From Candidatus Altiarchaeota archaeon (GTDB taxonomy: Archaea > Altiarchaeota > Altiarchaeia > IMC4 > SCGC-AAA252-I15), in assembly GCA_043822165.1 (NCBI GenBank), contig JBDRCA010000012.1, positions 1 through 41,081 on the forward strand: 41,081 bases of DNA, given 5' to 3'. Under the pieces are notes generated by a model. It had not been told where the DNA came from and did no database searches. It saw only the letters and a list, made by a program, of their open reading frames with translations. Each line of letters opens with the position of its first letter. The first letter of the stretch is position 1. The translations under genes and the position numbers were made by a program. Positions 3,222 through 41,081 of this stretch are shown piece after piece.

Positions 3222-3226
3222 AAAAC

Positions 3227-5314: not shown

Positions 5315-5344
5315 TTTAGTAGTGTAATTATCTCGAAGAATACA

Positions 5345-7507: not shown

Positions 7508-7704
7508 CGCAACAGTATATCGCAAGGGTCGCCGAGGAGCTTATGGAAAAGTACCCTGAAGACTTCGGCTCGGATTTTAAGGCGAACAAGGAAAAGGTTA
7601 TCGAGTATTGCACTCTAAACAGCAAAGGCACCCGCAACAAGATTGCAGGTTTCATAACCCACAGGTTGAAGCAGGATAAAAAGGAAGAGAAAGCAGCGTC
7701 TTAG
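7495..7704 (+). CDS. rps17e: 30S ribosomal protein S17e
   Basis: 69-aa ORF MGNITQQYIARVAEELMEKYPEDFGSDFKANKEKV...NKIAGFITHRL matches the archaeal S17e consensus. Overlaps the sppA 3' end by 13 nt. Confidence 0.85.
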   Translation: MGNITQQYIARVAEELMEKYPEDFGSDFKANKEKVIEYCTLNSKGTRNKIAGFITHRLKQDKKEEKAAS

Positions 7705-10957: not shown

Positions 10958-11032
10958 TAGCGGGGAATGGATTTGAACCATTGACCTTCGGGTTATGAGC
11001 CCGACGAGCACTCCTGGCTGCTCAACCCCGCT
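10958..11032 (-). tRNA. Initiator tRNA-Met (anticodon CAT)
   Basis: The reverse complement folds as AGCGGGG-TT-GAGC-AGCCAGGAGT-GCTC-G-TCGGG-CTCATAA-CCCGA-AGGTC-AATGG-TTCAAAT-CCATT-CCCCGCT-A. The A1:U72 pair and three G:C pairs closing the anticodon stem are archaeal initiator hallmarks. Confidence 0.9.
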
Positions 11033-21508: not shown

Positions 21509-21531
21509 GAATTCTCCCCCAATATCTTCTT

Positions 21532-21808
21532 GGTGGACTAGGCTGGGGTGCTGGCCGTACCCTGTCACTCTAAACCGGCCTTACGAGAGAGTCGAAAGCC
21601 TGCGAGGCGAGCAATCCATTGGGTTTCTGGTCTGGGTTCCGACCGTGAGGTCTCGTCTCGCTGGATTGTCTGCTCGAGGAACCGGGTCAGGTCCGGGAGG
21701 AAGCAGCCCTAACTTAAGTGGATGATGCTGGCGAGGCCGCGGGATCGAGGAAGAGTCCAGGTTAAACCGGGAGCTTACTGGTTTGCTTCACACGCGGGCG
21801 CGTCCACC
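21532..21808 (+). ncRNA. Signal recognition particle RNA (archaeal 7S RNA)
   Basis: The 5' GGTGGAC pairs with the 3' GTCCACC. The 5' domain is GGCTGGGGTGCTGGCC. The helix-8 signature GGGTCAGGTCCGGGAGGAAGCAGCCCTAA matches the conserved GGUCAGGUCCGGAAGGAAGCAGCC motif. No credible ORF: track ORF 21480..21725 is a shadow. End coordinates are +/- 5 nt. Confidence 0.85.
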
Positions 21809-21913
21809 ACAACTGTCACGCCCAGTTGACATGCGAAGGCCATCTTCGGCGACTTCGTCGCCTCGATGACCTATACTGCATTTTTCTTCTCTTAGTCCCC
21901 TTTATTGTAGTTA

Positions 21914-22787: not shown

Positions 22788-25700
22788 ATGGATTCGTTTA
22801 AAAACGCGATTTCACTTGCCGTGTTGCTTCTACTGCTGCAATCCTCTGCCGCGGAAGAGCATTTCGAGCGTAATGCTTCTTCTTTCTGCAGGACGCCTCT
22901 CTTCCACGAGGAGGCGGTGCGTTCCGCCAGTCTTTTGTCTTACCGGTCGCTTTCAAGCCAGGAGTTATCTCGCATCGGGAAGATTGGTTTGGATGGGATG
23001 ATTGTGGAGGAAAACGTGGGGGATGTTCGCAGTTTCTATACCATTGACGCGGACGGTGGCGTGTATTACTGGAAGGACCTTGATGCTGTCTTAAGGAACA
23101 AGACTGACAACGTGTACGTGTATGTTGAGCTTACCGAGCCCGGTGGCAACGAGGTATGGTATGACGGCGCCAATAATGGTTACATCACTCAGGTGGATGT
23201 TAATCTGATTACTCAGGTGTTCGATCAGGCATTGACTGAAAACGACATCTATGGCATAGACCGGGCGGTGTTCGGCGGGGAGAGGCCTTACGGAGTAGAC
23301 AATGATTCTCACGTTACTCTTCTTTTGCTTGACATCGACGGCGACGAAGGCGACAATTACTCTGGCGGGGGATACACTGCGGGCTACTTTTATCTCATAA
23401 ACGAGTACGCCAACAACACGCCGGTTATGAGTTGTCCCTCCTTCGGGGACTGCCTTTACAGTAATCAGAGAAAGATGATTTTCATAGACACTTATCCGAC
23501 GATTGACTGGCGAACTGCGACGGTTCCATATGAGCCTGACCGCAACCACGGAAACGACGGATACGAGGGAGTCGACAAGTCCTACGGCATCATAGCCCAC
23601 GAGTTCGAGCACATGATTCACTGGTACCACGACGCAGACGAGTCGGTGTGGGTGGATGAGGGCTGCGCGGACTACGCGTATTACGTCAACGGGTTCGGCC
23701 ACCCCCAGGAGCACGTCAACGGATTCCAGAACTCGCCAGACACGCAGCTCACGGCCTGGTCCGGGACCATTGAAGACTACGGAGCATCATATCTTTGGAC
23801 GCTTTACTTGGCCGAGCATTACGGCGGAAACGCGACTATTACGGCGTTAGTAAACAATGCCGGGAACAATGTTTCCGGCGTGGACGCAACGCTTTCATCC
23901 AGGGGTTACTCCACATCTTTTGCGGCAGTCTTCCCGAAGTGGGTTGTCGCAAACTACGCAGACGACACGAATTTTGGCTCCGGGGAATACGGGTACAATG
24001 CAATCGACACGGTCATGAACCTTTCCGCGTCCAAGACATCCTACCCTGCGTCAGGAACAGGCTCGGTTAAGAATTACGCCGGAGAATACATAAAGTTTTC
24101 CAATGGAAACGGGTCGTCGCTTAACGTATCATTCAACGGGCAAGACGGCAAATCATTTAATGCATACGTCGTCGAGAAGACGAATTCGGGAGTCTCGGCA
24201 GTATCAGAGATAACCCTCGACTCCGGCAAAGCCGGTTCAACTCTTGCGACAGCATTCGGCGTAAACGGCAAAAACTCAACCCTCGTAATAGCGGGAGGAT
24301 CAAGCGCCGGCACATACTCATACGCGGCAGACTACGCTCCGGAAGTGGCGGTTCCGACGCCGTGGCTTCTCGTCGAGATGACTTACCCGACGGCAAGCCT
24401 GAATGTATCTGAGGAAGGCTCCTTTAACGTATCAGCTACCGTGACCTGCCGTGGCGCATACTGCGGAGACGTAAACGCAATCCTTGACCCCCAGGAGTAT
24501 TCTAATCCAAATCTTGGAACCTTAACGACGACCTCTGGTTTAGCTGCGACTACATCCGTACCCGGAACCACGAGTCTTCCGTCCACGACAAGCGTTGCCG
24601 GCGCGGGCACGATGACTGTTTCCGGGACTACCACTGTCCCTTCGACGACGACTCTCCCTGAAGAGGCGACGACTACTACCACGACTACGACTCAGTCCGC
24701 GACGACTACGACCACGCAGGCGGGGACGACCACTACTTCCTCCACGACAACCACGGTCTTAAAGTCTGGGGCAGTCCCCGAGGGTTCCGGCTCCCCGTTC
24801 TACACGCTTGACGCCAACCCAGCATATCCCGCGAATTTCCCATGCCTTGCAAGCATGACAGAAAACGATTCATGCAACGTAACCTGGGAAGTACAAGTCA
24901 ACGGCTCCGGCGGCCCATACATATTCTATGTTACAGCCAACAGCACGGAAGGCGCGCAAAACAACTCCAATACAGCAAACGTCACGATTCTACCGCCGAC
25001 ACCCGGTGCATTAACCGCTGAAATCACAGAACCCAACGCATCCATCCAGACACTCAAACACGCGCAATTCAACTTCACCGTAAGAGTAAACTGCACAGGC
25101 GGAGACTGCGGCGTCGTTACCGCAACCCTTGACCCAGAAAGCTCCGGCTCACCCTTCTACACCCCTGACGCGAACCCGCGACACGGAAACGCTCTCCCAT
25201 GTCTTGCGAACATGACCGGGAACTCAACGTGCAACGTAACATGGAGACTGAACGCGACAGGCACGGCAGGCTCAACGCACGTATTCTACGCAACCGTAAA
25301 CTCGACGCGCACGCAAAACCAGTCCTCGACGATAAACGTGACAATACTTGCTGCACCCTCTTCAACTGAAAACTTCACGGTTGACGCTAACGCTAGCCAG
25401 CCGGTACAGGTGAACTCGTCGGCGGCCAACGCCTCAATTACCTTATCCGTAAGCCAGAACGTATCAAATGAAACCCTCACCATTAACTCATACGATGAAA
25501 ACCCGGAGTTCACAGTCTTCAGTGAACCATCACTCGGAACATTCTACAGAATCGAGGCATCAAATGCTCTCGCAGGAAACCTGACCTACGCACTACTGAC
25601 GCTTCACTACTCTGAGGCTTGGGTCAACCAATCCAACCTGAACGAATCAACCCTTGCCATATACTGGCACAACGAAACCGGCTCCCTCTGGGAAAAAATT

Positions 25701-25874
25701 TCATCAGACATGGACTGGGTCCACGAGACCGGATTAAACGAGACTGGAGACTACGCTTGGGCTAATCTCACGCATTTCTCGACCTACGTCATAGGAGGCG
25801 AAAGCCTCTCAGTATCCCACACGGGAGAATTATACCTAGGATGGAATCTCATATCCCTCCCAGTTAGCATTTAA
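22788..25874 (+). CDS. Secreted, heavily sequon-decorated zinc metalloprotease (HEXXH...E gluzincin type) with Thr-rich linker and repeated beta-sandwich modules
   Basis: 1028-aa ORF. Signal peptide MDSFKNAISLAVLLLLLQSSAAEE. HEFEH at 23598-23612 with a downstream WVDEGCADY (third ligand Glu at 23658-23660). Thr-rich tract at 24522-24755. Two copies of the module C.GG.CG.V.A.LDP..SGSPFYT.DANP...C.....N..CNVTW. About 40 N-X-S/T sequons (hand count). Ends LGWNLISLPVSI. Confidence 0.75.
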   Translation: MDSFKNAISLAVLLLLLQSSAAEEHFERNASSFCRTPLFHEEAVRSASLLSYRSLSSQELSRIGKIGLDGMIVEENVGDVRSFYTIDADGGVYYWKDLDAVLRNKTDNVYVYVELTEPGGNEVWYDGANNGYITQVDVNLITQVFDQALTENDIYGIDRAVFGGERPYGVDNDSHVTLLLLDIDGDEGDNYSGGGYTAGYFYLINEYANNTPVMSCPSFGDCLYSNQRKMIFIDTYPTIDWRTATVPYEPDRNHGNDGYEGVDKSYGIIAHEFEHMIHWYHDADESVWVDEGCADYAYYVNGFGHPQEHVNGFQNSPDTQLTAWSGTIEDYGASYLWTLYLAEHYGGNATITALVNNAGNNVSGVDATLSSRGYSTSFAAVFPKWVVANYADDTNFGSGEYGYNAIDTVMNLSASKTSYPASGTGSVKNYAGEYIKFSNGNGSSLNVSFNGQDGKSFNAYVVEKTNSGVSAVSEITLDSGKAGSTLATAFGVNGKNSTLVIAGGSSAGTYSYAADYAPEVAVPTPWLLVEMTYPTASLNVSEEGSFNVSATVTCRGAYCGDVNAILDPQEYSNPNLGTLTTTSGLAATTSVPGTTSLPSTTSVAGAGTMTVSGTTTVPSTTTLPEEATTTTTTTTQSATTTTTQAGTTTTSSTTTTVLKSGAVPEGSGSPFYTLDANPAYPANFPCLASMTENDSCNVTWEVQVNGSGGPYIFYVTANSTEGAQNNSNTANVTILPPTPGALTAEITEPNASIQTLKHAQFNFTVRVNCTGGDCGVVTATLDPESSGSPFYTPDANPRHGNALPCLANMTGNSTCNVTWRLNATGTAGSTHVFYATVNSTRTQNQSSTINVTILAAPSSTENFTVDANASQPVQVNSSAANASITLSVSQNVSNETLTINSYDENPEFTVFSEPSLGTFYRIEASNALAGNLTYALLTLHYSEAWVNQSNLNESTLAIYWHNETGSLWEKISSDMDWVHETGLNETGDYAWANLTHFSTYVIGGESLSVSHTGELYLGWNLISLPVSI
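24522..24755 (+). repeat. Thr-rich (ACN-codon) low-complexity tract, mucin-like linker
   Basis: Encodes LTTTSGLAATTSVPGTTSLPSTTSVAGAGTMTVSGTTTVPSTTTLPEEATTTTTTTTQSATTTTTQAGTTTTSSTTTTV. Confidence 0.85.
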
Positions 25875-25897: not shown

Positions 25898-28800
25898 ATG
25901 AAAGAAAAAACACGGTTCGCCGCCGCCCTAACACTACTACTCATACTACCCGCTATCTCCTGCGCCGCTCCCGCTCGGCCCGGATACGTTAATCTTACCC
26001 AACCAGACGGCTCCGTATTCACGGCAAGGCTTCGCGGAGACGAGTACGCCGCCTGGTACGAGACAAGTCAAGGATACAGCATAGTCCAGAACCAAAACAA
26101 CTGGTGGGTGATGGCAAGGGAACGAGACGGAAGACTCGTAGAAACATTTACTCGCGCAGACGCGAAAGCATCCCATCTCCTGTCAGACATACCCTTGCAC
26201 GCGCGCCCTGCAGGCTTAAGCCCGCCACCCGGCGGCCCATACAAAGGCCCGTCTCCGTCAGGCATAAGAGAATACGTGAACGGAACAGTCAAAGTGCTGG
26301 TGCTCCTCATAAACTTCACGGACAACCCGCGGGTTAACGCTTCCCGTTACGTCGGCCCATACTACAACGATCTTTTGTTCAACCACTCAAACAACATGAG
26401 CATGGCAACATACTACTGGGAGAACTCGTATGGAATATTCAATGTCACGGGCGGGGTCGGCGGACCAGACAAATGGTACACGAGCGCGCAGAGCATGGCC
26501 TACTACGGCGCCGACTGCTCGGGAGCGGGCTCCGACGACTGTTACGGTAGCACGACCTATGACATGATATGCGAGGCCGCGTCTCTTGCGAATCCTGACG
26601 TCGACTACTCGCAGTACGACTCTGACAGCGACGGATACGTCGACTACTTGATTACAGTGCACGCAGGCTGCGCCCAGGAGGATTCAGTGGACTGTGCGAT
26701 GGCAAACACCATCTGGTCTGTACGCTGGAGCATCGGCGCCCCCTGGGATCTTTGCGGCACCACATTCGACGGCAAAAAGATTAGAAGCGGCACAATACTG
26801 GCTGAGAGCTCTCCGATGGGGACTTTCGGGCACGAGGCAGGCCACGACTTCGGAGACCTCCCTGACCTGTACGACATTGATTATTCGAGCGAGGGCATCG
26901 GGAACTGGGGTATGATGAGCGGCGGAAGCTGGAATGGCCCTGGTAGTCAGGCGGGGGAGTTTCCTGCGCACTTTTGCGCGTGGAGCAAGTACTATATGGG
27001 CTGGGTTAATCCTACTCTCATATCTTCTCCGCTATTCGACGAGGAGTTGGAGGCTGTTGAGACTTACCCTGATTTCTACCAGATAATGATTCCGTTATCA
27101 GACACGCCTTCTCACCCGTCATCCGGCGGCCAGAAAGAATACTTTCTCGTCGAGAACAGGCAGCAGGTGGGCTTTGACGCCTACATTCCCGGCTCCGGAG
27201 TCCTCATCTGGCACGTCGACGATAATCAGGTGCGGATAGAGGACAACAGCTTCAACAAATACGACAGCGATCGGGGCGTGGACCTTGAGGAGGCAGACCA
27301 GGCAACCCAGGCAAATAACGGACTGGACGGAAGCTCATATTACGGCACTGGAGACCGCGGCGTTGCTGCGGATGCTTGGAAGGCAAACGACGCAGGGTTC
27401 ACGGATTCTACGACTCCTAACTCGAAGTCCAAGGCGGGAGCGGCGACATACATAAACATAACGAACATATCAGCATCTGGGCTCGTTATGACAGCGGACT
27501 TCCTCGGAAACGGCACGACAATACACGGTACTGTTCTTCTCTCAAGCGGAAACGTTTCTCCGCAGTCAGGGTTCACTGACGAGACGTTCAACTACACTGT
27601 CTCATATCGGAGCGGTAATGATTCTGTTCCGTCTTACGTAAACGTCAGCATTGACGGTTCATCGTATGCCATGAATGAGTCTGATCCGTCGGACGCAAGA
27701 TTCATTGACGGCAAGGATTATTACTACCAGACGTATCTGGGTGTTGGTGTGCACAATTTCAGTTTCACGGCTTCTGACGGAGTCAGCACTAATTCCACGG
27801 AAGTATATGATAGTCCGAATGTTACCGTCCGCCCGGGTTACGTTACAGCATCCCTCATCTACCCTAATGCTTCCGTGAACTTCACCCGAAATGACATATC
27901 AAACGTTACTGCCCAGGTCACATGCCTCGGCGGGGACTGCGGGAACGTTACTGCAACCATAAATTCGAGCTCTGGCATCATACCTGAGGATTCCGGCTCC
28001 CCGTTCTACACGGTTGATGCTAATCCCCGCTATCCCGCCAACCTGTCGTGTCTTGTGAACTTGACTGAAAACTCATCGTGCAACGTCACGTGGAACATCA
28101 ATTCGACTGGGGGGCACGACACCGTCCATGACCTGCAAGTGTTCTTTGAGACGGCATTCTTCTCGAACACGACGGAGCAGGTAAGCGTTAGGATATATTC
28201 TCTGACGCCTTTCATCTCCAATCCACATCCATCCAACAACACGTTGTTCGGCCCCTACACGGCATCATTTTACCTTAACGTAACAACTCATGTGACGTCA
28301 GTGTGCCGGCTCTCAAACACGAGCGGGATACCATACGACAACATGACTTCGTCTTTCAACCAGACGAATTCGACGTCGCATTCAACGACGATAACCGGTC
28401 TTTCGAACAATCAGACGCTTAACCTTTACCTTAAGTGCCGCAGCACGCAGGGTTACGCAAACTCGGTCGACTATCCCCTTGAATACAGGGTTGCTGCCCC
28501 CGTTGTTGTCTTGAACGAGGTGAACGCGTACTCTGACTGGATTGAGTTGTTCAACAGGGGCGAGACCAGTGTTAATCTTTCGTCGTGGATTATCGAGCAC
28601 GTGTGGGGCGCAAACTCCGTTAACGTCACGTTAAACGAGACCATAACCACGTATATTGTCGCCTCAATAGCATTAAACGACATTGTAGGTCAAGTCCGGC
28701 TCTTTGACCGGGACGGCAACCTCGTAGACAACGTATCATACGTCAACCTCACAGACAACGTATCCTACGGCCGGCAAAGAGACGGGGAGACCCCATGGGT

Positions 28801-30262
28801 TCTGCTGGACGTTCCCTCCCCGGGATACACGAACGGGGAATACTACAGCCTCGACTGGTCCATGTTCAAGCACAACCCATCTCGCACGGCAGTAACCCCT
28901 GAAAACATGTCCTGGCGGCTGATACAGAAATGGAACCTCTCAATCGGCGACAAAGTCCGCTCATCCCCCGCAATCGTTGAAGGAGTCGTCTACTCAGCAT
29001 CCTGGAACGGGAGCATCTACGCCCTAAACTATTCGAACGGCAGCGTAATCTGGAATACTTCAGTTGGCTCATCAGTATCCTCTTCTCCTTCAGTGTCAGA
29101 GGGTCTTTTATATGTGGCCCGCTTCGGCGTGTCGACTGGAATACTATACTGTATGAATGCCTCCACTGGAGCCCACGTATGGAACATATCCTTTGCAGGA
29201 GAGATAGAGTCCTCACCGCTCGTCCAGTCAGAGATACTATACATCGGAGTAAACGACGGAAGACTATACGCGATAAACGCATCCACTGGAGCCCACATAT
29301 GGAATTACTCTGTGTCGTCTCCAGTCCGCTCGTCTCCCGCATTCAAGAACGGGGTGATTTATTTCGGAGCCAACAACATGAGGCTTTACGCACTTGACGC
29401 GTTAACGGGTTCCGAGTCATTCAACTACACGACATCCGGTATAGTCTATTCCACGCCTGCGGTTTCCGGGGAAACAGTAGTATTCGGTTCATACGACAAC
29501 AGGGTCTACGCTTTAAACACGTCATCTGGCGCTCAAATCTGGAATGCGTCGACTTCCGAGGGAGTATGGTCCTCGCCTGCGATATCCGATGACGTAGTAT
29601 ACATCGGCTCAAACGACAAGAAACTCTATGCCCTCAACTTATCCTCTGGCGCCCACATATGGAATGCAACGACCGGCGACGATATAGTATCCTCCCCCGC
29701 CGTCTCAGGCCAGTTCGTTTTCGCCTCCTCAAAAGACGAGATACTGCGGGCCTACAACAAGTCATCGGGAGCTCAGCTTTGGAGCGCTCACCTTGCCGAT
29801 AAGATTCTGTCTTCGCCCGCAGTCTCTGTTGGGATGGTTTTCGTGGGGGCTGAAGACGGGAGAATCTACGCGTTCGGCTTGTTTAATGACACAGACGCCC
29901 CGAACATAACTCTTCTCTCTCCGGAAAACAACTCGCTTGACTTGGACGGGGAACTCTCCTTCCTATACAGTGTAGTCGATGAAGGCTCAAACATCACGAA
30001 CTGCTCTCTCTACTTGGACGGCTTGTTAAACGACACGTCCTCTAACATAACAGAGGATACGAACCAGTCATTCAGTGCTTCGGTTCCTTTAAACGGCACA
30101 CACAACTGGAGCGTCTCGTGCACGGACACGTGGGATGATCCCAACACGGGTGTTAGCGACACGTGGTTTTTCAACGTTTCAATCCAGCTGACATTCAGCT
30201 TCTGGGAAGACATAATCCTTGGGTGGAACCTTATATCACTCCCCCTAAATGTAACAGGATAA
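25898..30262 (+). CDS. Secreted M6-family (immune inhibitor A-like) metalloprotease fused to a CARDB-like module, lamin-tail domain (LTD) and 8-blade PQQ-like beta-propeller
   Basis: 1454-aa ORF. Signal peptide MKEKTRFAAALTLLLILPAISCAAP. M6 features KVLVLLINFTDNP and HEAGHDFGDLPDLYD (26831-26875). LTD is VVLNEVNAYSDWIELFNRGETSVNLSSWII...VRLFDRDGNLVDNVSY (about 28495-28835). Eight SSPA..G.VY.GS.D..LYALN.S.G..W repeats lie at about 28950-29880. Ends LGWNLISLPLNVTG. Confidence 0.85.
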   Translation: MKEKTRFAAALTLLLILPAISCAAPARPGYVNLTQPDGSVFTARLRGDEYAAWYETSQGYSIVQNQNNWWVMARERDGRLVETFTRADAKASHLLSDIPLHARPAGLSPPPGGPYKGPSPSGIREYVNGTVKVLVLLINFTDNPRVNASRYVGPYYNDLLFNHSNNMSMATYYWENSYGIFNVTGGVGGPDKWYTSAQSMAYYGADCSGAGSDDCYGSTTYDMICEAASLANPDVDYSQYDSDSDGYVDYLITVHAGCAQEDSVDCAMANTIWSVRWSIGAPWDLCGTTFDGKKIRSGTILAESSPMGTFGHEAGHDFGDLPDLYDIDYSSEGIGNWGMMSGGSWNGPGSQAGEFPAHFCAWSKYYMGWVNPTLISSPLFDEELEAVETYPDFYQIMIPLSDTPSHPSSGGQKEYFLVENRQQVGFDAYIPGSGVLIWHVDDNQVRIEDNSFNKYDSDRGVDLEEADQATQANNGLDGSSYYGTGDRGVAADAWKANDAGFTDSTTPNSKSKAGAATYINITNISASGLVMTADFLGNGTTIHGTVLLSSGNVSPQSGFTDETFNYTVSYRSGNDSVPSYVNVSIDGSSYAMNESDPSDARFIDGKDYYYQTYLGVGVHNFSFTASDGVSTNSTEVYDSPNVTVRPGYVTASLIYPNASVNFTRNDISNVTAQVTCLGGDCGNVTATINSSSGIIPEDSGSPFYTVDANPRYPANLSCLVNLTENSSCNVTWNINSTGGHDTVHDLQVFFETAFFSNTTEQVSVRIYSLTPFISNPHPSNNTLFGPYTASFYLNVTTHVTSVCRLSNTSGIPYDNMTSSFNQTNSTSHSTTITGLSNNQTLNLYLKCRSTQGYANSVDYPLEYRVAAPVVVLNEVNAYSDWIELFNRGETSVNLSSWIIEHVWGANSVNVTLNETITTYIVASIALNDIVGQVRLFDRDGNLVDNVSYVNLTDNVSYGRQRDGETPWVLLDVPSPGYTNGEYYSLDWSMFKHNPSRTAVTPENMSWRLIQKWNLSIGDKVRSSPAIVEGVVYSASWNGSIYALNYSNGSVIWNTSVGSSVSSSPSVSEGLLYVARFGVSTGILYCMNASTGAHVWNISFAGEIESSPLVQSEILYIGVNDGRLYAINASTGAHIWNYSVSSPVRSSPAFKNGVIYFGANNMRLYALDALTGSESFNYTTSGIVYSTPAVSGETVVFGSYDNRVYALNTSSGAQIWNASTSEGVWSSPAISDDVVYIGSNDKKLYALNLSSGAHIWNATTGDDIVSSPAVSGQFVFASSKDEILRAYNKSSGAQLWSAHLADKILSSPAVSVGMVFVGAEDGRIYAFGLFNDTDAPNITLLSPENNSLDLDGELSFLYSVVDEGSNITNCSLYLDGLLNDTSSNITEDTNQSFSASVPLNGTHNWSVSCTDTWDDPNTGVSDTWFFNVSIQLTFSFWEDIILGWNLISLPLNVTG
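28950..29880 (+). repeat. Eight tandem roughly 40-codon PQQ-like beta-propeller blades
   Basis: Recurring SSPA(V/I)..G.VY.GS.D..LYALN.S(S/T)GA.IWN. Nucleotide-level echoes include CCACTGGAGCCCACGTATGGAA (about 29164) and CCACTGGAGCCCACATATGGAA (about 29284), 120 nt apart. Confidence 0.8.
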
Positions 30263-33788: not shown

Positions 33789-34769
33789 ATGGTCTGGGGT
33801 CCGCCGAAACTAAGAGAGCTACGTCTTTTCGAGGGCGAGAAAATCTCAATGGTGTTAACGCCGCACCCACTAGCATTCTACGGCATGCACATGCTCTGGA
33901 TTTACGTGATAGTGTTGTCTGCAATATTCTTCATAGTAAGCGATTTCATAGTCGACTACATGGGTCCAGGAGACCAAGGCTTCGCATTAAGCCTCCTGGG
34001 AAAATCAGATTCTCCCCTGGTTGCCAAGGCCCCCATAATAAACGTTTTCGCCTCCGTTCTGGATAGCATGCTAAGCGGCACAATATCCTTTTCCGTGCGC
34101 TACGGCATCGTATTCATCTGGTTTGCTCTTCTCTTCACGCCGTCTGTTGGATTGTCTGTTATGCGGGTCTCCTGGAAGTGGATGGCTTACGTGCTCTTTA
34201 CGGGTTTAGTCAGCATCGGGGTTCCCCTGGTATCTGGTTTGGATGAGAAGATGGTTTACGTGTTTGCCTCCTTGTTCGGTTTGCTGGGGATGATCGCAGT
34301 CGACCTTTACAGGCGCGGACACCACTATATCGTGACGAACTACCGGCTTATAACCGACGTGCGCTTCATCTACAATATCCGGGACGACATAAGCTACGAT
34401 AAGATTAACAATCTAGTCATGAATCAGTCCCTCTTCGGGAGATTGTTCGACTTTGGGACGCTTATGCCGTTGACTGCTTCCGGGCTCGGCATGGGTAGCG
34501 ATTTCGCGGCTGTGACAGTAGGAGCCGGGAAGCCGCTTTCTTCCGGCGTCCTTGTGGGCGGTGCCTTGACTGGGGGACGCAGCGTCAACTTTCCAAGAGA
34601 TATGTCTCAGTTTTCTCTTGTTGGGGTGCGCCACCCGAGGCAGGTTGTGGACCTGGTTTCGGAGTACGTGCACCTTGACAATGAATCTACCTACCTCAAA
34701 GACATATCCTCTGATATGAGAGAAATGCTCGGTGAAGTAAAAAAGAAGAGTAAACGTAAAAAAAGTTAG
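33789..34769 (+). CDS. Membrane protein with bacterial-PH (bPH_2 / YdbT-like) domain
   Basis: 326-aa ORF with several TM helices. HHYIVTNYRLITDVRFIYNIRDDISYDKINNLVMNQSLFGRLFDFGTL matches the bPH domain pattern. Lys-rich tail. Confidence 0.6.
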   Translation: MVWGPPKLRELRLFEGEKISMVLTPHPLAFYGMHMLWIYVIVLSAIFFIVSDFIVDYMGPGDQGFALSLLGKSDSPLVAKAPIINVFASVLDSMLSGTISFSVRYGIVFIWFALLFTPSVGLSVMRVSWKWMAYVLFTGLVSIGVPLVSGLDEKMVYVFASLFGLLGMIAVDLYRRGHHYIVTNYRLITDVRFIYNIRDDISYDKINNLVMNQSLFGRLFDFGTLMPLTASGLGMGSDFAAVTVGAGKPLSSGVLVGGALTGGRSVNFPRDMSQFSLVGVRHPRQVVDLVSEYVHLDNESTYLKDISSDMREMLGEVKKKSKRKKS

Positions 34770-35257
34770 TTTTCTTTTTTCAGTATTTTGGGCTGTATTC
34801 TCTGGCTGTTTTTCAGTATTTTGGGGTGTATCACTTGACTGAATTTTATGATTTCATGTAGGGGGTAGATTGTTACGGGATATTTACCAACCTTTCCTAG
34901 GAATTCTTCTAAGTTCTCGTGGCTTTCAGAGTTGGGTACAACAACTTGGACTATTATTTTGCCGTCTAAGGTCCTGAATATTTTTTGCGCTTCATCAAGT
35001 TTCTCTATGCTTTTTGCTAGTTTCTTGGATTCGCTTGGTGGCGTGTGGATGATTATGTAACTCATATCGAGTCCGTTTTCATTGGGGTCAAGTATTGCAG
35101 AGAATTTTTTTATTACTCCTCTGTCGATTAGTTTGTTGACGCGCGAGCAAATGGTTGTGTGGGGTATGTCCAGTTCCCCCCCAAGTTTACGCAGGCTAAT
35201 TCTAGCATCGTCTTGCATGTGTTCCATAATCTGGATGTCTAGTTCGTCAATTTTCAT
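34766..35257 (-). CDS. Lrp/AsnC-family transcriptional regulator
   Basis: 163-aa ORF. HTH MKIDELDIQIMEHMQDDARISLRKLGGELDIPHTTICSRVNKLIDRGVIKKF followed by a RAM-like alpha/beta domain. Noticeably lower GC than its neighbours. A TTTTTAAATA box lies on its strand at about 35286-35296. Confidence 0.85.
   Translation of the reverse strand: MKIDELDIQIMEHMQDDARISLRKLGGELDIPHTTICSRVNKLIDRGVIKKFSAILDPNENGLDMSYIIIHTPPSESKKLAKSIEKLDEAQKIFRTLDGKIIVQVVVPNSESHENLEEFLGKVGKYPVTIYPLHEIIKFSQVIHPKILKNSQRIQPKILKKEN
34777..34831. repeat. 33-bp tandem duplication at the 3' end of the Lrp gene
   Basis: TTTTCAGTATTTTGGGCTGTAT (34777-34798) and TTTTCAGTATTTTGGGGTGTAT (34810-34831) differ at 1 of 22 positions with a 33-nt period. 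They encode the duplicated tail HPKILKNSQR / IQPKILKKEN. Confidence 0.8.
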
Positions 35258-35300
35258 GTTAAGGTGATATTACTACGGCAGTTTCTATTTAAAAACCACA

Positions 35301-35322
35301 TTATAATATTATAATATTATAA
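35301..35322. promoter_or_regulatory. Perfect 22-bp AT palindrome TTATAATATTATAATATTATAA (two overlapping TATAATATTATA 12-mers), box 1
   Basis: Self-complementary, checked by hand. Lies just upstream of the Lrp-gene TATA-like box. Built from the octamer TTATAATA. Confidence 0.6.
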
Positions 35323-35401
35323 CTTCAATGTCACTCTAAGGCTGATACTATTAACCAATATTGGGCTGCCCACACAGTATTCTATTAGTGATTAAGACCC
35401 A

Positions 35402-35416
35402 ATGCAATTTTTGCAT
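35402..35416. promoter_or_regulatory. 15-bp palindrome ATGCAA-TTT-TTGCAT
   Basis: Perfect 6-bp inverted arms. A further TTGCAT half-site lies at 35442-35447. Confidence 0.45.
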
Positions 35417-35426
35417 ATTGTACAAT

Positions 35427-35438
35427 TATAATATTATA
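35427..35438. promoter_or_regulatory. Palindromic 12-mer TATAATATTATA, box 2
   Basis: Exact copy of the 12-mer found in boxes 1 and 3. Confidence 0.55.
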
Positions 35439-35493
35439 TTTTTGCATGTAATTCATCAATACTTATGATAAAATATTCTTTATTGTATATCGT

Positions 35494-35515
35494 ATAATTA
35501 TAATATTATAATATT
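35494..35515. promoter_or_regulatory. ATAATTATAATATTATAATATT, box 3 (contains TATAATATTATA at 35499-35510)
   Basis: Third cluster of the TTATAATA-type octamer repeat, 257 nt upstream of the giant ORF start. Confidence 0.55.
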
Positions 35516-35554
35516 GAACATAGTCCATTTTTAAAGGCTTATTGTCATACTATA

Positions 35555-35600
35555 TAATCTCATACGGGAGCCTTGTAAGGGGGTTAATCTCGTACGAGAG
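35555..35600 (+). repeat. Two 16-nt direct repeats TAATCTC(A/G)TACG(G/A)GAG, 30 nt apart, in the giant-gene leader
   Basis: 35555-35570 and 35585-35600 match at 14 of 16 positions. The second contains the perfect palindrome CTCGTACGAG. A TATATAAT box overlaps at 35551-35558. Confidence 0.6.
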
Positions 35601-35771
35601 TCTAACAAAAATGAAATATGGGTGGTTGGAAGTATCTCTAAATCAGAATTATTCTCCAGTTTCAGATATTCTGCTCTACTCACCACAAAAATCTTTCTCA
35701 AGAAAAAACCTAACCGAAACGTTCTCTACTCAAAAAAAATATTCGAATAAAATGGAGGTTGCATAAAAAAA

Positions 35772-38700
35772 ATGGAACAGAAAAAAACAGGACATATAAG
35801 AAATTGGTTTGGAAGCCATTTAACGGCACTGAACTCCCAGAAAGGAACTTTATTCAAAAGCCCGACAACACTACTAACGCTCACAATACTTATGTTACTC
35901 GTAGCCTCCATTAGCGTAAGCCATGTAATCGCTTTAATCCAGCCCACCGTCTCGACCGACAAGGCGGACTACGCGCCAGGCGAAACAGTCCTCATAAGCG
36001 GGGAAGGTTTCGCATACGATGCGCCCATGATGATGTCGATTGAAAGACCAGACGGTGAAACAGAGTCATGCGACGTAACCTCCTGTAATGCAAGATTCCT
36101 TGACGGTCCGTTAACCTCCGATGCAACCGGCTCGTTCTCAGACTACCCCTACCTCCTAAACGGAATCGAAGGCGAATACACAATAACCGCCTCAGACGGC
36201 ATAAACGATGCAACAGCAACATTCACTGACATAATAACCCCCTGCCCTACCGCGTGTACAAATGCAGGGTATGCAATAAGTTCTTGCGTACAAAGTCCAG
36301 GAGTCTGCACCACCGGTGGCGGGGTTACAGTAGTTGCAGGGAATGGTGGATGTAATCAAGCCACAGGAGGGGGATCAGGAACATGCTGCTGCGGTGCTGC
36401 AGTATCCCACGACCCGCACGCCGAGTGCGTCAACAACCAGTGCGTTGAGGTGGCGGGCTCTGGAATAGACCAGTGTTATGATACCCTAGACTGTGGAGGA
36501 ACAACAACAAGTTCAACCACAACCTCGACTACAACACTCCTAGAAACCACAACCTCGACCACAACAACTCTATACGCGAGACCCTGCGATAGCCCCACCG
36601 ACTTGTGCAGTTGGGTAACCGACGGCAACCCCGACAACGGCCTCCCGCTCGGCTCTCCCGACAACTCCGGCTGCGGATTATCATACAACACATTCTGGGC
36701 TCTCGACACCCAAGCCACCGCAACCTGCACGTTCGACGGAACTGGCCTCGGCGGCGCAGACCTCTACATCTCAATTGACAACGACGTCGTAAGCTGCACA
36801 CTCAACACCGTGAGCATATTCTCCATTTCCCATGAGGGTTGTGCGGCAGTCGACCCGCGCACCATCGGAGGAGGCGTGGGGCAGGGATACCAAGTCCCGC
36901 TCACTGGCCTCAACTCCGGCACAAACACTATCGTATGTACTGTAAACGACCGCGGCACGATGAGTCACTTCGACGCCTGCGTGATTGGAACAGAATGCAC
37001 TACTGCTGCTGACTGCGACGACAGCGACGACTGCACAACCGAATCATGCGTTGAAGGAAGCTGCACACACGGAAATGCAGTGCAAGGAACCGAATGCGGT
37101 GAGGCACGTAATTGCCCTGAAGACGATTGTAACGGATTCTTTGCTGAATTCTATCCAGATGACGGCCACGACACCTGCGACGGCCAAGGAAATTGCGTGC
37201 AATACTCCTGCGCAATGGAGGATTCATACTGCACCGACAACGATGACGCGGACGGTGTAAACACTCTAACGTGCGGTGCAGAATGCGACCAAAACAGCGA
37301 CTGCCAAGCAAAAATAGAAAGCGACACATGCTACTATGATGGGTCATGCGACCTACAAACCGATTGCGCATGCGACTATTCAAACGAACCCTGCCCCGAA
37401 GCAGGTACAATAATCGGTGACGACTGCTACTATGGAACCAGGAACTGTGTAAATTCAGAGAGTCCAGGCGGCTGTACTTTAAATGTTGATCCAATGGGCT
37501 GCTACGACACATGCGACCCAGTTTTAGGGCCAATCGACACCATAGGTCCGGTAACATCAAACCTGGATGTCGACCCCAACCCAAACAACGGTTTGTTCGA
37601 CATCACGGCGACGGCAACAGACTCCTGCACAAACATTGATAAAGCAGAATACTTTGCTGGCGACGCCGTAATCCCGTGCGGGCCAGAGGGTACAGGAATC
37701 TCGATGGATGCCTCAGACGGCAACTTCGACGCACTCATCGAAGACGTGGAAAAATACTTCTCAAGCGCAATAACAGACGGCTCAAACGTCGTTTGGGTGC
37801 GCTCGCATGATGCCGCAGGAAACTGGGGTAACTGCATACCCTTCTATTTTGAGACAGACCGGATTCCGCCGGAGCGCGTGTTCGACTATTGTATCGACGG
37901 CAACTGCCCGCCAGACGAGTATCTGATGTGCGGAAACGACGGCACATTAACTGTGACAGTTTGTGACAGCGAATCCAACCTGCAGGGCGGCGAATACTTC
38001 ATCGACATGAATATCCCTCCCCAGAATATACCCGCACCGTGGAGTGGTTTCTGGCTAAACATAACCAACAACTACATCGACAAAATCGGCTGGCACTGCT
38101 CTGATCTTACTGGTCCGTTGCATCTCGGAAACCTTTCTGAGGGGACGCACTACATAAACCAGATTCGCGGCAAAGACACCGTCGAAAACTGGGGTAAAAT
38201 CTACAACCAAAACCTCGGCATGTCGTTCATCAAGGACACGACCGAACCCGCAACTGACAAACAGCTTAACCCGCAGGACAGTGCGAGCGTCGTATGCGAC
38301 ATCACGGAAGCAAACGGCGAGACGATAACCAACGGCTGCTACTACGTCAAACAGTGGACGACGATCGTCTTAAACGCTTCTGACCCAGACCCCCAGCAGA
38401 CTGGTGAGTTCGCAGGAAACGTCATCATCAAATACATAGTGTACTGGAAGAATGATGACTGCGATAGCGCTAGTGGTTGGACAATCGACCAGCAGGGTCA
38501 AAGCAATGTAGATGAGTCAGTTACTATCACCTTGACCGAAGACAGCTGCCACCTCGTCGAGTACTGGGCTGAGGATCTCTGCGACAACGAAGAGGAGCAC
38601 CACTTCGAGCTTGACATCGTCGATACGGCGGCCCCTGAAATAACCAAAGAGGTTGTCGGCGACCAGGTGGACGGCAACGGAAACCCAATCCACAAGTACA

Positions 38701-41081
38701 TCAACGACGAAACACAAGTCATCCTTACATGCGAGGATGTGATGCCTCACCCGGTTGACGACGTAACCCTCTACTGGGAGCACTACTACGCTGCAGACGC
38801 TGACTGTGTTGTATCCGATTGGGGCACGCCTTTGGAAACCGGTTCAGAGAATAGTCAGAGTGATCCTGTCACTAAGACATTCACCGGGCTCGAGGATAGC
38901 TGCCACAAATTCGTGTACTGGTGTGAAGACGCCTTAGGCAACACTTTCGGCCCGATTGAGGAAATAGATGCGGTAGACAACACACCGCCCGAACTCAACA
39001 AGGACATAGGAACGCCGATATACGTTGACGGCGAGGAAGTCTACATCTCGCTTGCGACCCCGATAACACTTACGTGCGTGGACAGAGGAAACCACCCTGT
39101 CGACGACGTCACAATCTACTGGAGGTGGATCGTCAACGACGTGCCGCAGAGTGAGGAATCAATCAACGCCGAGAGTGTTGTCCTACACGCCAGCGAAGAC
39201 TGCTATCACACACTCGAGTACTGGTGCGAGGACTCGCTCGGAAACCTAGTCGAGAAAATCGAATACGATATAGTTGACGCAAAAGCCCCGATTTCATCTA
39301 GCGAGGTCGTCGGCCCGCAGTACGAGAATGATAGCAAGTTGTACATAGACGGCGTTACTAATGTCGCATTGTCGTGTGAAGACCAGATGCCACACCCAAG
39401 CGGCGTCAAGAAAATCGAGTACCGGTACTTCATAAACGACACAATCCTGGTTCAGGATTGGACTACCTATGCGAATCCGTTCAGTTTCCCTGAGGAGTCG
39501 CATCACACGCTAGAGTATCGTTGCATAGATAACGTTGACAACGTGGAGATCGCGAACGTCAGAGAATACTACGTCGATCATACACCACCGACGACAACGA
39601 AAATATATGGCACACCATTCTACATAAACGGTAGCTTAGAGTGGGCTAGCTCCCTCACGGAGATTACCTTAACGGCGGACGACGGCACAAGCGAGCATGC
39701 GTCTGGTGTACAGTACACCATGTATCGCGTGACTCTCGTCGACGACAGCAACTGTTACGCAAGCTGTGTTGCGGAAGGAAGCGGTGGGTTCAACACCTAT
39801 TCCGTGCCGTTCACGATCGGCGAGGATTCATGTCACCTGATTGAGTTCTACAGTGTTGACAACGTCGAGAAAACCGAGCAGACGAAGAAGCAGTGCGTAT
39901 TCATCGACAACAAGCCGCCTGAATCCTCAAGCGAGGTTTTAGGCCCACAGTATGATGACGGACAAAAGCTGTACATCGACGGCGTAACCGAGATTCAGTT
40001 GTCGTGCGAAGACCAATTGCCTCACCCCAGTGGAGTACAGTATATTGCATACAAGTACTCTGTTGACGGTAGTCCGATTCAAGACTGGACGACATACACT
40101 GGCCCGTTCAGCTTCCCTGAGGAGTCACACCATGTACTAGAGTACCGGTGCGTCGACAACGTCGACAACATGGAGACTGCGAACGTCAGAGAATACTACG
40201 TTGACCACACAAAGCCTGTGACGACAAAAACCTACGGCACTCCATACGTGACCGACGGAATCTCTGAGTGGATTACCTCACAGACACCAGTAACTCTTAC
40301 GGCCGACGACGGCAGTGAGAACCATGACAGCGGCGTAGCGACAACATACTACCGTGTGACTCTCGTCGCCGACAGCAACTGTTACACAAGCTGTGTGGAT
40401 GCAGGAACCGGTGGGTTCAACACATATTCCGTGCCGTTCACAATCGGCGAGGACTCATGTCACCTAATCGAGTTCTACAGCGTCGACCGCGTGAATAAGA
40501 CCGAGCAGACTAAGAGACAGTGCACGTTCGTCGACAACACCAAGCCCGCCACATCAAAGACTGTGAGCGAGCCTAAGGTTTCTGGCACCGGCGGAATAGA
40601 CTACTACATCACAGCGGACACTGTGATTGAGTTGTCCTGCGCCGACCAGATGCCGCACCCGGTAGATGACGTTACACTATATTGGGCGGTATACTACAAC
40701 ACAGAATGCATTGACTCGCAGTCTGAGGCTTGGAGCCTTATTGACAGCGGAAAGACCGACGGCGTAAAGACTATAACTGGCCTTTCGGACAGCTGCCACA
40801 AAATCTCGTACTTCTGCGTTGACGCCCTCGGAAACACCGAAGTCGAGCATGTCGAGATTGACGCGGTAGACAACACGCCGCCGGCATCAGTAAAGACAGT
40901 CGGCGACCCGAAGGTCGACAAAGACGACCAGTACGACTACTACATAACACAGCAGACTAACATAACAATTGATTGCAGTGACCCTGCTCCGCATCCGGTT
41001 GATGATGTTACAATCCACTGGGTTATTTCCGGCCCGGGCGGAGGCACATACAGTGATAACAGCGCTTCGGTGACGTTCACT
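35772..41081 (+). CDS. Giant Cys-rich cell-surface protein with N-terminal signal anchor, Thr linker, Cys/Asp-rich region and at least 9 Ig-like (OmpL47/Big-like) modules; 5' part only (1770 codons, no stop before the window end)
   Basis: Absent from the ORF track because it never terminates. Hand translation from ATG 35772 stays open to 41081. An in-frame TAA lies at 35748 and GGAGGT at 35754-35759, 12 nt upstream of the ATG. The span is 5310 nt, exactly 1770 codons. N-terminus: MEQKKTGHIRNWFGSHLTALNSQKGTLFKSPTTLLTLTILMLLVASISVSHVIALI. Only short shadow ORFs exist on the other strand. Confidence 0.88.
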   Translation, partial: MEQKKTGHIRNWFGSHLTALNSQKGTLFKSPTTLLTLTILMLLVASISVSHVIALIQPTVSTDKADYAPGETVLISGEGFAYDAPMMMSIERPDGETESCDVTSCNARFLDGPLTSDATGSFSDYPYLLNGIEGEYTITASDGINDATATFTDIITPCPTACTNAGYAISSCVQSPGVCTTGGGVTVVAGNGGCNQATGGGSGTCCCGAAVSHDPHAECVNNQCVEVAGSGIDQCYDTLDCGGTTTSSTTTSTTTLLETTTSTTTTLYARPCDSPTDLCSWVTDGNPDNGLPLGSPDNSGCGLSYNTFWALDTQATATCTFDGTGLGGADLYISIDNDVVSCTLNTVSIFSISHEGCAAVDPRTIGGGVGQGYQVPLTGLNSGTNTIVCTVNDRGTMSHFDACVIGTECTTAADCDDSDDCTTESCVEGSCTHGNAVQGTECGEARNCPEDDCNGFFAEFYPDDGHDTCDGQGNCVQYSCAMEDSYCTDNDDADGVNTLTCGAECDQNSDCQAKIESDTCYYDGSCDLQTDCACDYSNEPCPEAGTIIGDDCYYGTRNCVNSESPGGCTLNVDPMGCYDTCDPVLGPIDTIGPVTSNLDVDPNPNNGLFDITATATDSCTNIDKAEYFAGDAVIPCGPEGTGISMDASDGNFDALIEDVEKYFSSAITDGSNVVWVRSHDAAGNWGNCIPFYFETDRIPPERVFDYCIDGNCPPDEYLMCGNDGTLTVTVCDSESNLQGGEYFIDMNIPPQNIPAPWSGFWLNITNNYIDKIGWHCSDLTGPLHLGNLSEGTHYINQIRGKDTVENWGKIYNQNLGMSFIKDTTEPATDKQLNPQDSASVVCDITEANGETITNGCYYVKQWTTIVLNASDPDPQQTGEFAGNVIIKYIVYWKNDDCDSASGWTIDQQGQSNVDESVTITLTEDSCHLVEYWAEDLCDNEEEHHFELDIVDTAAPEITKEVVGDQVDGNGNPIHKYINDETQVILTCEDVMPHPVDDVTLYWEHYYAADADCVVSDWGTPLETGSENSQSDPVTKTFTGLEDSCHKFVYWCEDALGNTFGPIEEIDAVDNTPPELNKDIGTPIYVDGEEVYISLATPITLTCVDRGNHPVDDVTIYWRWIVNDVPQSEESINAESVVLHASEDCYHTLEYWCEDSLGNLVEKIEYDIVDAKAPISSSEVVGPQYENDSKLYIDGVTNVALSCEDQMPHPSGVKKIEYRYFINDTILVQDWTTYANPFSFPEESHHTLEYRCIDNVDNVEIANVREYYVDHTPPTTTKIYGTPFYINGSLEWASSLTEITLTADDGTSEHASGVQYTMYRVTLVDDSNCYASCVAEGSGGFNTYSVPFTIGEDSCHLIEFYSVDNVEKTEQTKKQCVFIDNKPPESSSEVLGPQYDDGQKLYIDGVTEIQLSCEDQLPHPSGVQYIAYKYSVDGSPIQDWTTYTGPFSFPEESHHVLEYRCVDNVDNMETANVREYYVDHTKPVTTKTYGTPYVTDGISEWITSQTPVTLTADDGSENHDSGVATTYYRVTLVADSNCYTSCVDAGTGGFNTYSVPFTIGEDSCHLIEFYSVDRVNKTEQTKRQCTFVDNTKPATSKTVSEPKVSGTGGIDYYITADTVIELSCADQMPHPVDDVTLYWAVYYNTECIDSQSEAWSLIDSGKTDGVKTITGLSDSCHKISYFCVDALGNTEVEHVEIDAVDNTPPASVKTVGDPKVDKDDQYDYYITQQTNITIDCSDPAPHPVDDVTIHWVISGPGGGTYSDNSASVTFT
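39301..40560 (+). repeat. Tandem duplication of a 630-nt (210-codon) two-module unit inside the giant gene
   Basis: Copy 1 (39301-39930) and copy 2 (39931-40560) align colinearly. Examples: SEVVGPQYENDSKLYIDGVT.. versus SEVLGPQYDDGQKLYIDGVT.. and ..GGFNTYSVPFTIGEDSCHLIEFYSVD.. in both. Long identical nucleotide runs include GCGAACGTCAGAGAATACTACGT and TATTCCGTGCCGTTCAC. Confidence 0.85.

Follow-up and report, generated by a model that had tools for sequence, protein, structure and literature searches.

A giant cysteine-rich surface protein gene of an Altiarchaeota archaeon, probably coding for a fibrillar adhesin

Known surface proteins and the Altiarchaeota gene

Altiarchaeota and DPANN archaea are uncultured organisms which live on surfaces or fixed to other cells, and little is known of the machinery by which they make contact. 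We describe here a giant gene which is a concrete, well-folded candidate for this machinery. It occupies positions 35772-41081 of the forward strand in a contig of a Candidatus Altiarchaeota archaeon (GenBank assembly GCA_043822165.1, contig JBDRCA010000012.1). The window which we have analysed has 41,081 bp: it is an entire contig of a metagenome-assembled genome (MAG), and the giant gene runs off its end. We estimate at about 65% the probability that this is a real gene for a giant secreted surface protein, acidic and rich in disulfides, which acts as a fibrillar adhesin. Judging by its sequence, the visible part of the protein is a mosaic whose units are conserved independently of one another: a hydrophobic helix, a domain A, a linker, a jelly-roll domain J, a cysteine-rich domain C, two Big-like domains and a train of nine immunoglobulin (Ig)-like modules.

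Giant acidic surface proteins with Ig repeats are documented in DPANN-type archaea (PMC10266531), where we also find relatives of the Altiarchaeota protein. The initial annotation of this DNA had called giant adhesin-like proteins typical of episymbiotic or small-genome archaea, which agrees with both observations. Such proteins are already recognised in these archaea; the present finding extends the catalogue and overturns nothing. What is new lies in the detail: an unannotated lectin-like family (J), an unannotated and widely shared module with ten cysteines (C) and a branch of the OmpL47-type repeat which has diverged and probably carries disulfides. All three could be used for new family models, for glycan-binding tests and as metagenome markers of attachment genes.

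Among the comparable systems of archaea are the giant proteins of nanohaloarchaea (SPEARE, SVXNc_0300-type), which have 8,900-9,400 aa and a VirB4/TraG-like ATPase domain (PMC10266531). They resemble our protein in several features: they are very large, with an isoelectric point (pI) of about 4, exported by Sec, made of tandem Ig-like or fibronectin type III (FnIII)-like domains, present in small-genome archaea and proposed to act in cell-cell contact (PMC10266531). However there is no evidence of homology between them and the Altiarchaeota protein. No VirB4/TraG-like ATPase is found in the visible 1770 aa, nor in the precomputed Pfam lists of the complete homologues P0002-P0007, and an identity with the SPEARE/VirB4-type proteins is thus ruled out. 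Another giant structure is the hamus of Candidatus Altiarchaeum. Its subunit is defined by S_Layer_N, NosD and FKBP_C domains (PMC4975002), with an N-terminus which is similar to proteins of the surface layer (S-layer) (PMC4460559). We have compared the hamus by this description, and its subunit is ruled out by domain content: no Pfam family matches the whole giant protein at E<=1. A looser kinship with the hami or with the SPEARE/VirB4-type giants is very improbable. The source of the contig is labelled Altiarchaeota, giant proteins are known in DPANN archaea and the grappling-hook protein GhpA is found among the structural matches of the module train, but that match reflects generic Ig-like repeats (TM-score 0.36-0.46); the three hamus domains are undetected even at E<=1 and the ATPase is missing, as already described.

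In Bacteria the best comparison is with the RTX-type adhesins. SiiE (2yn3/2yn5) and MpIBP (5irb) are the best structural matches of the module train (E 1.7e-7 to 6e-7), and the sugar-binding PA14 domain of MpIBP (6m8m/5j6y) is among the top structural matches of domain J. As in the Altiarchaeota protein, a long Ig-like rod is combined with a lectin-like domain and the composition is very acidic. The differences are also clear: the structural alignments have 12-14% identity, with no detectable sequence homology, RTX-type adhesins use type-I C-terminal secretion instead of an N-terminal Sec signal, they are essentially free of cysteine and their lectin-like domain is near the C-terminus instead of the N-terminus. 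No RTX repeat was found by Pfam within the visible 1770 aa.

Two further groups should be mentioned. OmpL47 is surface-exposed in Leptospira and binds weakly laminin, fibronectin, fibrinogen, collagen III and elastin (PMC2935396). The giant protein reaches 113.5 bits with its model (NF047441; LIC13050), whereas the equivalog cut-off is 250 bits: it is not an orthologue of OmpL47. Its modules also differ from the OmpL47 type by the replacement of SGV and EGxH with PHPVDDV and E(D/E)S(C/H)H and by the presence of extra cysteine pairs. Finally, lectins of the PA14/GLEYA class and of the carbohydrate-binding modules (CBM) are the top structural neighbours of domain J, with which they share a beta jelly-roll. 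However the TM-scores are only 0.37-0.50, and domain J adds eight conserved cysteines and motifs of its own.

The gene and its reading frame

From 35772 to 41081 on the forward strand there are 1770 codons and no stop, whereas each of the other five frames has 55-95 stops in the same stretch. Calculated from these stops, the odds of finding such an open frame by chance are about 1e-24 to 1e-42. The start codon ATG (35772-35774, +) is preceded by an in-frame TAA (35748-35750, +), 24 nt before it, and by a Shine-Dalgarno-like GGAGGT (35754-35759, +), 12 nt before it. Retranslation thus gives the same result as the initial annotation, which had read an open frame of at least 1770 codons up to the window edge and had placed the TAA and the GGAGGT at these distances. 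It had also considered the gene invisible in the track of open reading frames (ORFs). The gene is indeed missing from that track, because ORF lists drop the frames which are open at the end of the sequence; but it had already been annotated in NCBI, where entry P0001 (locus tag ABH834_00685, 'hypothetical protein, partial', Candidatus Altiarchaeota archaeon) is 100% identical. We consider the gene as real because of its 1770 codons free of stops, of this partial coding sequence in NCBI and of the homologue P0003, which gives a single collinear high-scoring segment pair spanning aa 268-1750.

The start of the gene deserves a comment. The NCBI model has 1,730 aa and begins at Met41 (35892), 40 codons 3' of ATG 35772. 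It strips the protein of its charged N-region and of the front part of its sole hydrophobic helix. Since the helix is truncated in this way, and since the N-termini of the homologues are comparable to the one read from ATG 35772, we prefer the latter: with its Shine-Dalgarno-like site it is a better start, and the deposited one is probably wrong.

About two-thirds of a genuine gene are visible, counted from its 5' end. The full-length protein probably has about 2,300-2,900 aa, as estimated from the longer collinear homologues. Its composition is very acidic, 15.9% of D+E versus 3.9% of K+R, with a pI of 4.05. There are 84 cysteines in the visible 1770 aa and only eight N-X-S/T sequons.

Besides the whole protein, ten separate segments were compared with Pfam at E<=10. 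Nothing significant appeared: only MG2 (0.13), Big_13 (0.005), Big_7 (0.03) and PAN_3 (0.21) are found. In the PDB neither the complete sequence nor the profiles made for domains J, C and A found a significant match. AlphaFold2 models were made for single units, namely domain J and modules M3-M5.

The contig ends within a repeat module, and it may be that repeats have broken the assembly. One could then think of an artefact, either misassembled or collapsed repeats or a decaying pseudogene which seems open. We give this explanation almost no credit: there are no stops in 5.3 kb, the repeats have diverged (the closest pair has 73% DNA identity and only four 20-mers are repeated in the gene), the order of domains is collinear with that of independent homologues from other samples and both AlphaFold models are confident.

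The train of Ig-like modules

The C-terminal half of the visible protein is a train of nine Ig-like modules (38235-41081, +), delimited by self-BLAST and by a profile and open at the contig end. They are M1 (aa 822-950), M2 (951-1068), M3 (1069-1168), M4 (1169-1268), M5 (1269-1378), M6 (1379-1477), M7 (1478-1587), M8 (1588-1699) and M9 (1700-1770, cut). Each of them opens with D-x-x-x-P, at aa 822, 951, 1069, 1169, 1269, 1379, 1478, 1588 and 1700. The module size is 99-129 residues, apart from the last one, which is incomplete. All modules are mutually homologous, with BLAST E values as low as 1e-53. The nine D-x-[TAK]-x-P boundaries which had been read from the sequence are real. A tandem duplication is apparent: M4+M5 (aa 1167-1375) have given M6+M7 (aa 1377-1584), with 65-74% identity in protein and 73% in DNA.

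The modules had been compared with the OmpL47 pattern, a proposal which is partly borne out. The NCBIfam model NF047446 (OmpL47-type beta-barrel domain) matches the whole protein with 128.4 bits (E=1e-37, cut-off 40) in four stretches. Taken singly, only M4 (45.1 bits) and M6 (46.3 bits) are above the cut-off of 40; M5 (30.7) and M7 (35.0) remain below it, and M1, M2, M3, M8 and M9 give no match at E<=10. These five, the 'PHPVDDV' modules, are tied to the others by BLAST and by a custom profile only. The search module by module thus recovers NF047446 on four modules, but nothing significant in Pfam on any segment.

Modelling of the modules had also been suggested. The AlphaFold2 model of M3-M5, which includes one module of each subtype, has a predicted local distance difference test score (pLDDT) of 93.1 and consists of three beta-sandwiches forming a rod, in agreement with the Ig-like nature proposed for these modules of about 100 residues. 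When it is compared with the PDB by Foldseek, the BIg domains of SiiE come first (E=1.7e-7), followed by MpIBP and then by FnIII arrays and GhpA of Aureispira. Together with the Big-like pair described below, the rod has at least 11 tandem Ig-like beta-sandwiches.

The cysteines of the modules follow a definite pattern. In a set of 51 modules from the giant protein and its homologues, 29 have cysteine in both the B-strand and the F-strand, 20 in neither and only 2 in one of them. This covariation is in favour of a B-F disulfide of Ig type in about half of the family modules, and with it of the disulfide stapling which had been suggested. In the giant protein C1102-C1152 and C1202-C1251 are candidate pairs of this kind. 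The histidine of the E-x-S-x-H motif is invariant (51/51 modules). Taken together, the train appears as a branch of the OmpL47-type repeat which has diverged, probably carries disulfides and is largely missed by the curated models.

The N-terminal region and its domains

The protein begins with a positively charged N-region of 31 aa followed by a hydrophobic helix of about 25 aa (aa 32-56; together 35772-35939, +), as it is apparent from hydropathy. The strongest windows of 19 residues begin at aa 34-39 and cover roughly aa 34-57, with a mean Kyte-Doolittle value of 2.37. It is the only strongly hydrophobic stretch among the 1770 aa and corresponds to the signal anchor which had been placed at residues about 31-56. 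Two readings of the helix are possible: a signal anchor which stays uncleaved, or a Sec signal peptide, possibly cut at V-I-A|L (aa 52-55), a site which agrees with the -3/-1 rule. In the homologues the N-terminal signal or transmembrane segments have 20-27 residues.

Domain A (aa 59-153; 35946-36230, +) is a conserved beta-rich domain, defined by alignment, with the motif TDKADYAPGETVLISGxGF. It is common to seven other proteins, with 45-62% identity over the aligned domain. All matches with curated families are below threshold: the best is MG2, with E=0.13 here and 0.016 in the best of the members, and the PDB sequence search gave no significant match. The domain is probably Ig- or MG2-like. 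An Ig-like domain had been assigned to this position: a conserved beta-rich domain is indeed found there, but the matches of Ig or MG2 type stay below threshold.

It is followed by a region of unusual composition (aa 157-267; 36240-36572, +), formed by a Gly/Cys-rich segment with CCC at aa 205-207 and by a Thr-rich linker (aa about 243-267). Among the homologues found, none covers aa about 160-250; the Gly/Cys and Thr segment appears to be specific to the source lineage. The CCC and the Thr linker had been pointed out before, together with a Cys/Asp-rich region further on: all are present, and the latter is the discrete and strongly conserved module C.

Domain J (aa 268-408; 36573-36995, +), defined by alignment and by AlphaFold2, is a jelly-roll with eight conserved cysteines, of which six are invariant in the family alignment and two are found in at least 90% of the copies. 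The model, made with 43 homologues, is all-beta, with a pLDDT of 92.8 and a predicted template modelling score of 0.87. The jelly-roll-like segment which had been noticed at this position is thus a confident jelly-roll, and its nearest folds are of lectin or CBM type: in the PDB Foldseek finds the PA14 domain of RTX adhesins (6m8m, 5j6y), CBM61, CBM35 and CBM6, accessory domains of glycoside hydrolases and the domains of the yeast adhesins Flo and Epa. The likeness is weak in all cases (TM-score 0.37-0.50, E about 1e-3, 9-18% identity). In the BFVD library of viral structures the matches are F5/8-C, PA14, GLEYA and tail fibres, which are viral receptor-binding or lectin domains.

No sequence model recognises this domain. 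There is no Pfam match for aa 263-410 at E<=10, neither PA14 nor CBM, and no NCBIfam match; the family profile does not match any PDB sequence. It has its own motifs: LPLGS, NTYW, HEGCAxxDPR and DRGxMSHFDACV. It is also rare: an exhaustive profile search in 1.84 billion representatives gives 38 proteins at E<=1e-30, a number which rises to 48 at <=1e-10 and to 300 at <=1e-3. The close family has no Pfam annotation over the J region. Ten of the remote matches were compared with Pfam: eight have no match at all, and none of the ten is matched over the region similar to J. The other two contain a CARDB domain below threshold in one case and a VPDSG-CTERM sorting signal in the other. Domain J is therefore a rare, unannotated family of its own, although it belongs to the structural class of lectins, CBM and PA14. 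It is a putative head for the binding of ligands or glycans; glycan binding is suggested by the fold class, and no PA14 or CBM sequence model matches.

The same domain is found in about 40 stand-alone archaeal proteins of about 190 aa (P0043-P0085), which make up most of its close family. They have a signal peptide, domain J and then 'PEF', a transmembrane helix and a basic tail (RKR/RRK). In these proteins J would be a unit displayed on the surface and tethered through its C-terminal side. The tail is reminiscent of the sortase-type sorting signals PEF-CTERM and PEP-CTERM. A membership in the PEF-CTERM group was considered and rejected: the tails score below the NCBIfam cut-offs of PEP-CTERM and PEFG-CTERM.

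Domain C (aa 409-570; 36996-37481, +, with the core at 37086-37304) is a knot rich in Cys and Asp, also defined by alignment. Its core of 73 residues (aa 439-511) has ten invariant cysteines, together with invariant Y, P, G, D and R positions. The consensus is GTxCGxARxCPxDxCxGFxAxFYPxDGHDxCDGxGxCxxYSCxxxxxYCTDxDxxDGxNxLxCGAxCDxxxDC, which in the giant protein is found as FYPDDGHDTCDG...YSC...YCTDND..DG.N.L.CGA.CD...DC. Segments with 40-78% identity to it are present in about 30 giant archaeal proteins, sometimes twice in the same protein. These carriers are otherwise dissimilar: their precomputed Pfam domains differ, for example CARDB, beta-helix (NosD-type), Disintegrin and MopE-like, and domain C is much better conserved than the proteins which carry it. 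It has no match in Pfam, NCBIfam or PDB. We regard it as a probable mobile module of extracellular proteins, not described before.

Between domain C and the train there are two Big-like beta-sandwich domains (aa 589-821; 37536-38234, +), which end with ...D(A/T)xxNWGxx. They are assigned from weak Pfam matches, Big_13 (E=0.005) and Big_7 (E=0.03), and from their homology with the repeats of three other proteins (P0036, P0037 and P0040), two of which (P0036 and P0037) have precomputed Big_13 domains.

Homologues and their distribution

Four homologues are collinear with the giant protein: P0002 with 2,683 aa (an ENA metagenome), P0003 with 2,837 aa (JGI), P0004 with 2,311 aa (a Candidatus Aenigmatarchaeota MAG) and P0005 with 1,443 aa. 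They have 33-38% identity over 51-84% of the query. A more distant protein, P0007 (1,080 aa), has 28% identity over 38%, with domain J and the module train in common. The four collinear homologues have their parts in the same order as the Altiarchaeota protein: a signal, then A or J or both, Cys-rich modules, the Big-like pair and a train of D-x-T-x-P modules with the PHPVD and E-x-S-x-H motifs. However the Gly/Cys segment and Thr linker of aa 157-267 are unique to the giant protein, and the proteins vary in their C-terminal domains and in how many Cys-rich inserts they have and of which type. The initial annotation had found no single family which would fit this architecture. It is true that no curated family covers the protein, but it does belong to a collinear family; close homology with a characterised family was looked for, and the homologues found are all uncharacterised and have no curated family name.

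Several homologues (P0002, P0007, P0029 and P0086) end with a domain of about 170 aa which opens with 'KKWNLIS(V/I)PF', has a second 'GWNLIG' and contains no transmembrane helix. In the complete homologues there is no C-terminal transmembrane helix. The WNLIS domain and its motif have no Pfam match, and a literature search on the motif gave nothing relevant.

Around the genes of three homologues (loci L001, L002 and L003) we did not find any gene order in common. In each of them a gene with a Fic domain is found no more than about 10 kb away from the giant gene (L001 2892-3755, L002 6317-7219, L003 20493-21851). In our window general Pfam scans did not report any Fic gene, although no search was aimed at it. 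Locus L001 has paralogous surface-protein genes on both sides: one of 941 aa which matches aa about 500-810 and another of at least 819 aa, cut by the end of the locus, with domain A. In L001 and L002 there are further large exported proteins, some of them paralogous or with Ig-like domains of surface type.

Topology and possible function

As a fibrillar adhesin, the giant protein would be exported by Sec, with a signal which is probably cleaved, and would undergo oxidative folding outside the cell. The A-J-C head would be the distal end which binds a ligand, J recognising a glycan on another cell, on a partner archaeon or on a surface. The Ig-like train would be a stiff spacer or fibre, several tens of nanometres long. 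By analogy with SiiE and MpIBP, Ca2+ at the Asp-rich D-x-T-x-P junctions might rigidify the rod. Beyond the contig the C-terminus would be a retention module close to the cell, the domain of about 170 aa opening with 'WNLIS(V/I)PF', by analogy with P0002, P0007, P0029 and P0086.

The orientation of the fibre is the point where another explanation has to be weighed. The N-terminal helix could remain as an anchor, so that A, J and C would stand near the envelope, interacting for example with the own S-layer or glycans, and the C-terminal domain would be the working tip. RTX adhesins (MpIBP, LapA, SiiE) are held at the cell by their N-terminus and have their ligand-binding domains in a distal position. 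They are the best matches of the rod and give an example of such an arrangement. The hydrophobic segment, about 25 residues after an N-region of 31, is longer than a typical h-region, and similar stretches of 23-27 residues are found in P0002, P0003, P0004 and P0006; there is no other transmembrane segment visible in the giant protein, nor a C-terminal one in the complete homologues. However the signal peptides of P0005, P0007 and P0086 are short and canonical, with A-x-A-like sites right before the first domain, V-I-A|L fits the -3/-1 rule and the stand-alone J is tethered at its C-terminal side. An anchor at the N-terminus is a serious rival, but we find it less likely. We favour a distal head because the short signal peptides of P0005, P0007 and P0086 lead directly into the first domain, because stand-alone J is tethered in that way and because the sole candidate for a retention element in the homologues is C-terminal.

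A structural role should also be considered. The rod and the Cys knots might build or cross-link the envelope or a biofilm matrix, as an S-layer-associated, sheath or matrix component. The arrays of beta-sandwiches match also the HPI layer of Deinococcus (Foldseek rank 24), the envelopes of Altiarchaeota are unusual (PMC4975002) and there is a cluster of glycosylation genes on the contig. Nevertheless we consider this role improbable: the domain family is patchy and rare, as the counts of J at E<=1e-30 indicate, the architectures of the homologues are highly variable, as one expects for adhesins rather than for core envelope proteins, and no S-layer domain is matched.

Several points weigh against a fibrillar adhesin with a distal head. 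The lectin likeness of J is weak and no PA14 or CBM sequence model supports it. The helix of about 25 aa after the N-region of 31 aa could be an uncleaved anchor, which would place the head at the membrane and the C-terminus at the tip. The WNLIS retention module is seen in homologues and not in the giant protein itself, whose C-terminus lies beyond the contig. Finally, the Ca2+ sites and the disulfides of the rod are putative.

The WNLIS element and two secreted proteins of the window

Two adjacent genes for large secreted proteins, found upstream in the window (22788-25874 and 25898-30262, both +), have the sequence ...LGWNLISLP 10-12 residues before the stop. The first codes for 1,028 aa, with a HEFEH zinc motif (HExxH) and no Pfam match; its C-terminal peptide carries ...LGWNLISLPVSI and the protein ends with ...GELYLGWNLISLPVSI. 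The second codes for 1,454 aa with Peptidase_M6, LTD and a PQQ beta-propeller, and ends with ...DIILGWNLISLPLNVTG. Among the long ORFs of the window ...LGWNLISLP is only found in these two. WNLIS is also what opens the C-terminal domain of homologues of the giant protein, a hint that the signal for retention or docking may be common to both. It is not a signal of sortase type, because no transmembrane helix follows it in either ORF. Both proteins are visibly rich in N-X-S/T sequons, unlike the giant protein.

The WNLIS motif may be a new C-terminal tag for retention or docking. A bolder proposal, which we hold to be unlikely, is that the giant protein is one component of an undescribed archaeal system of surface display and contact, in which J is a disulfide-locked lectin family, used both for the heads of fibres and in small PEF-tailed proteins, and WNLIS is a signal for retention or docking which does not need a transmembrane helix, present as a two-repeat C-terminal domain in the homologues and as a bare C-terminal strand in the two secreted proteins. 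If this were true, docking through WNLIS, for example by beta-strand complementation into an envelope receptor or into the giant fibre, would load proteases onto an attachment scaffold.

Upstream region and other genes of the contig

Upstream of the giant gene there is a divergent gene for a winged-helix regulator of AsnC/Lrp type with 163 aa (34766-35257, -; Pfam HTH_24 1.1e-9, HTH_AsnC-type 1.8e-9). The two genes are separated by an AT-rich intergenic region of 514 bp (35258-35771). A repeat search found in it four copies of an AT-rich palindromic repeat of ATTATAATATTATAA type, two of them overlapping (35297-35321, 35414-35438, 35486-35510 and 35494-35518). They are at 40-260 bp from the start of the AsnC/Lrp gene and at least 250 bp from the ATG of the giant gene. 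Another sequence, TAATCTC(A/G)TACG(G/A)GAG(C/T)CT, occurs twice (35555-35573 and 35585-35603), and its second copy holds the perfect palindrome TCTCGTACGAGA. With TTGYAWWWWWTRCAA as the consensus of the Lrp box, the intergenic region has one match with one mismatch, TTGCATATTGTACAA at 35411-35425, which is not significant alone: at least one match appears in 12 of 100 shuffles. In the whole window Rfam finds only the signal recognition particle (SRP) RNA and two tRNAs, and nothing in the region upstream of the giant gene.

The initial annotation had seen here a dedicated regulator and an elaborate control region. The dedicated regulator is not supported: it was suggested by adjacency, its gene is divergent, the palindromes lie closer to this gene than to the giant one and no AsnC/Lrp neighbour is present in any of the homologue loci L001-L003. 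A functional link from the regulator to the giant gene is unsupported.

The rest of the contig is an ordinary archaeal chromosome, with an archaeal MCM carrying a winged-helix domain, FtsZ, a gene of the IF-2B family and a histidine kinase. The archaeal SRP RNA is found at 21531-21809 (+, 145 bits) and the two tRNAs, also from Rfam, at 6369-6442 (+) and 10958-11032 (-). A gene for a Cas4/PD-(D/E)XK nuclease is present at 7701-8486 (-), with no CRISPR array seen nearby. The beginning of the window (226-6316, -) is occupied by the glycosylation cluster: it has two GT4 glycosyltransferases, an asparagine synthase-like amidotransferase, an NAD-dependent epimerase/dehydratase and a family-4 glycosyltransferase similar to AglH/WecA. 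These genes could supply glycans for surface proteins.

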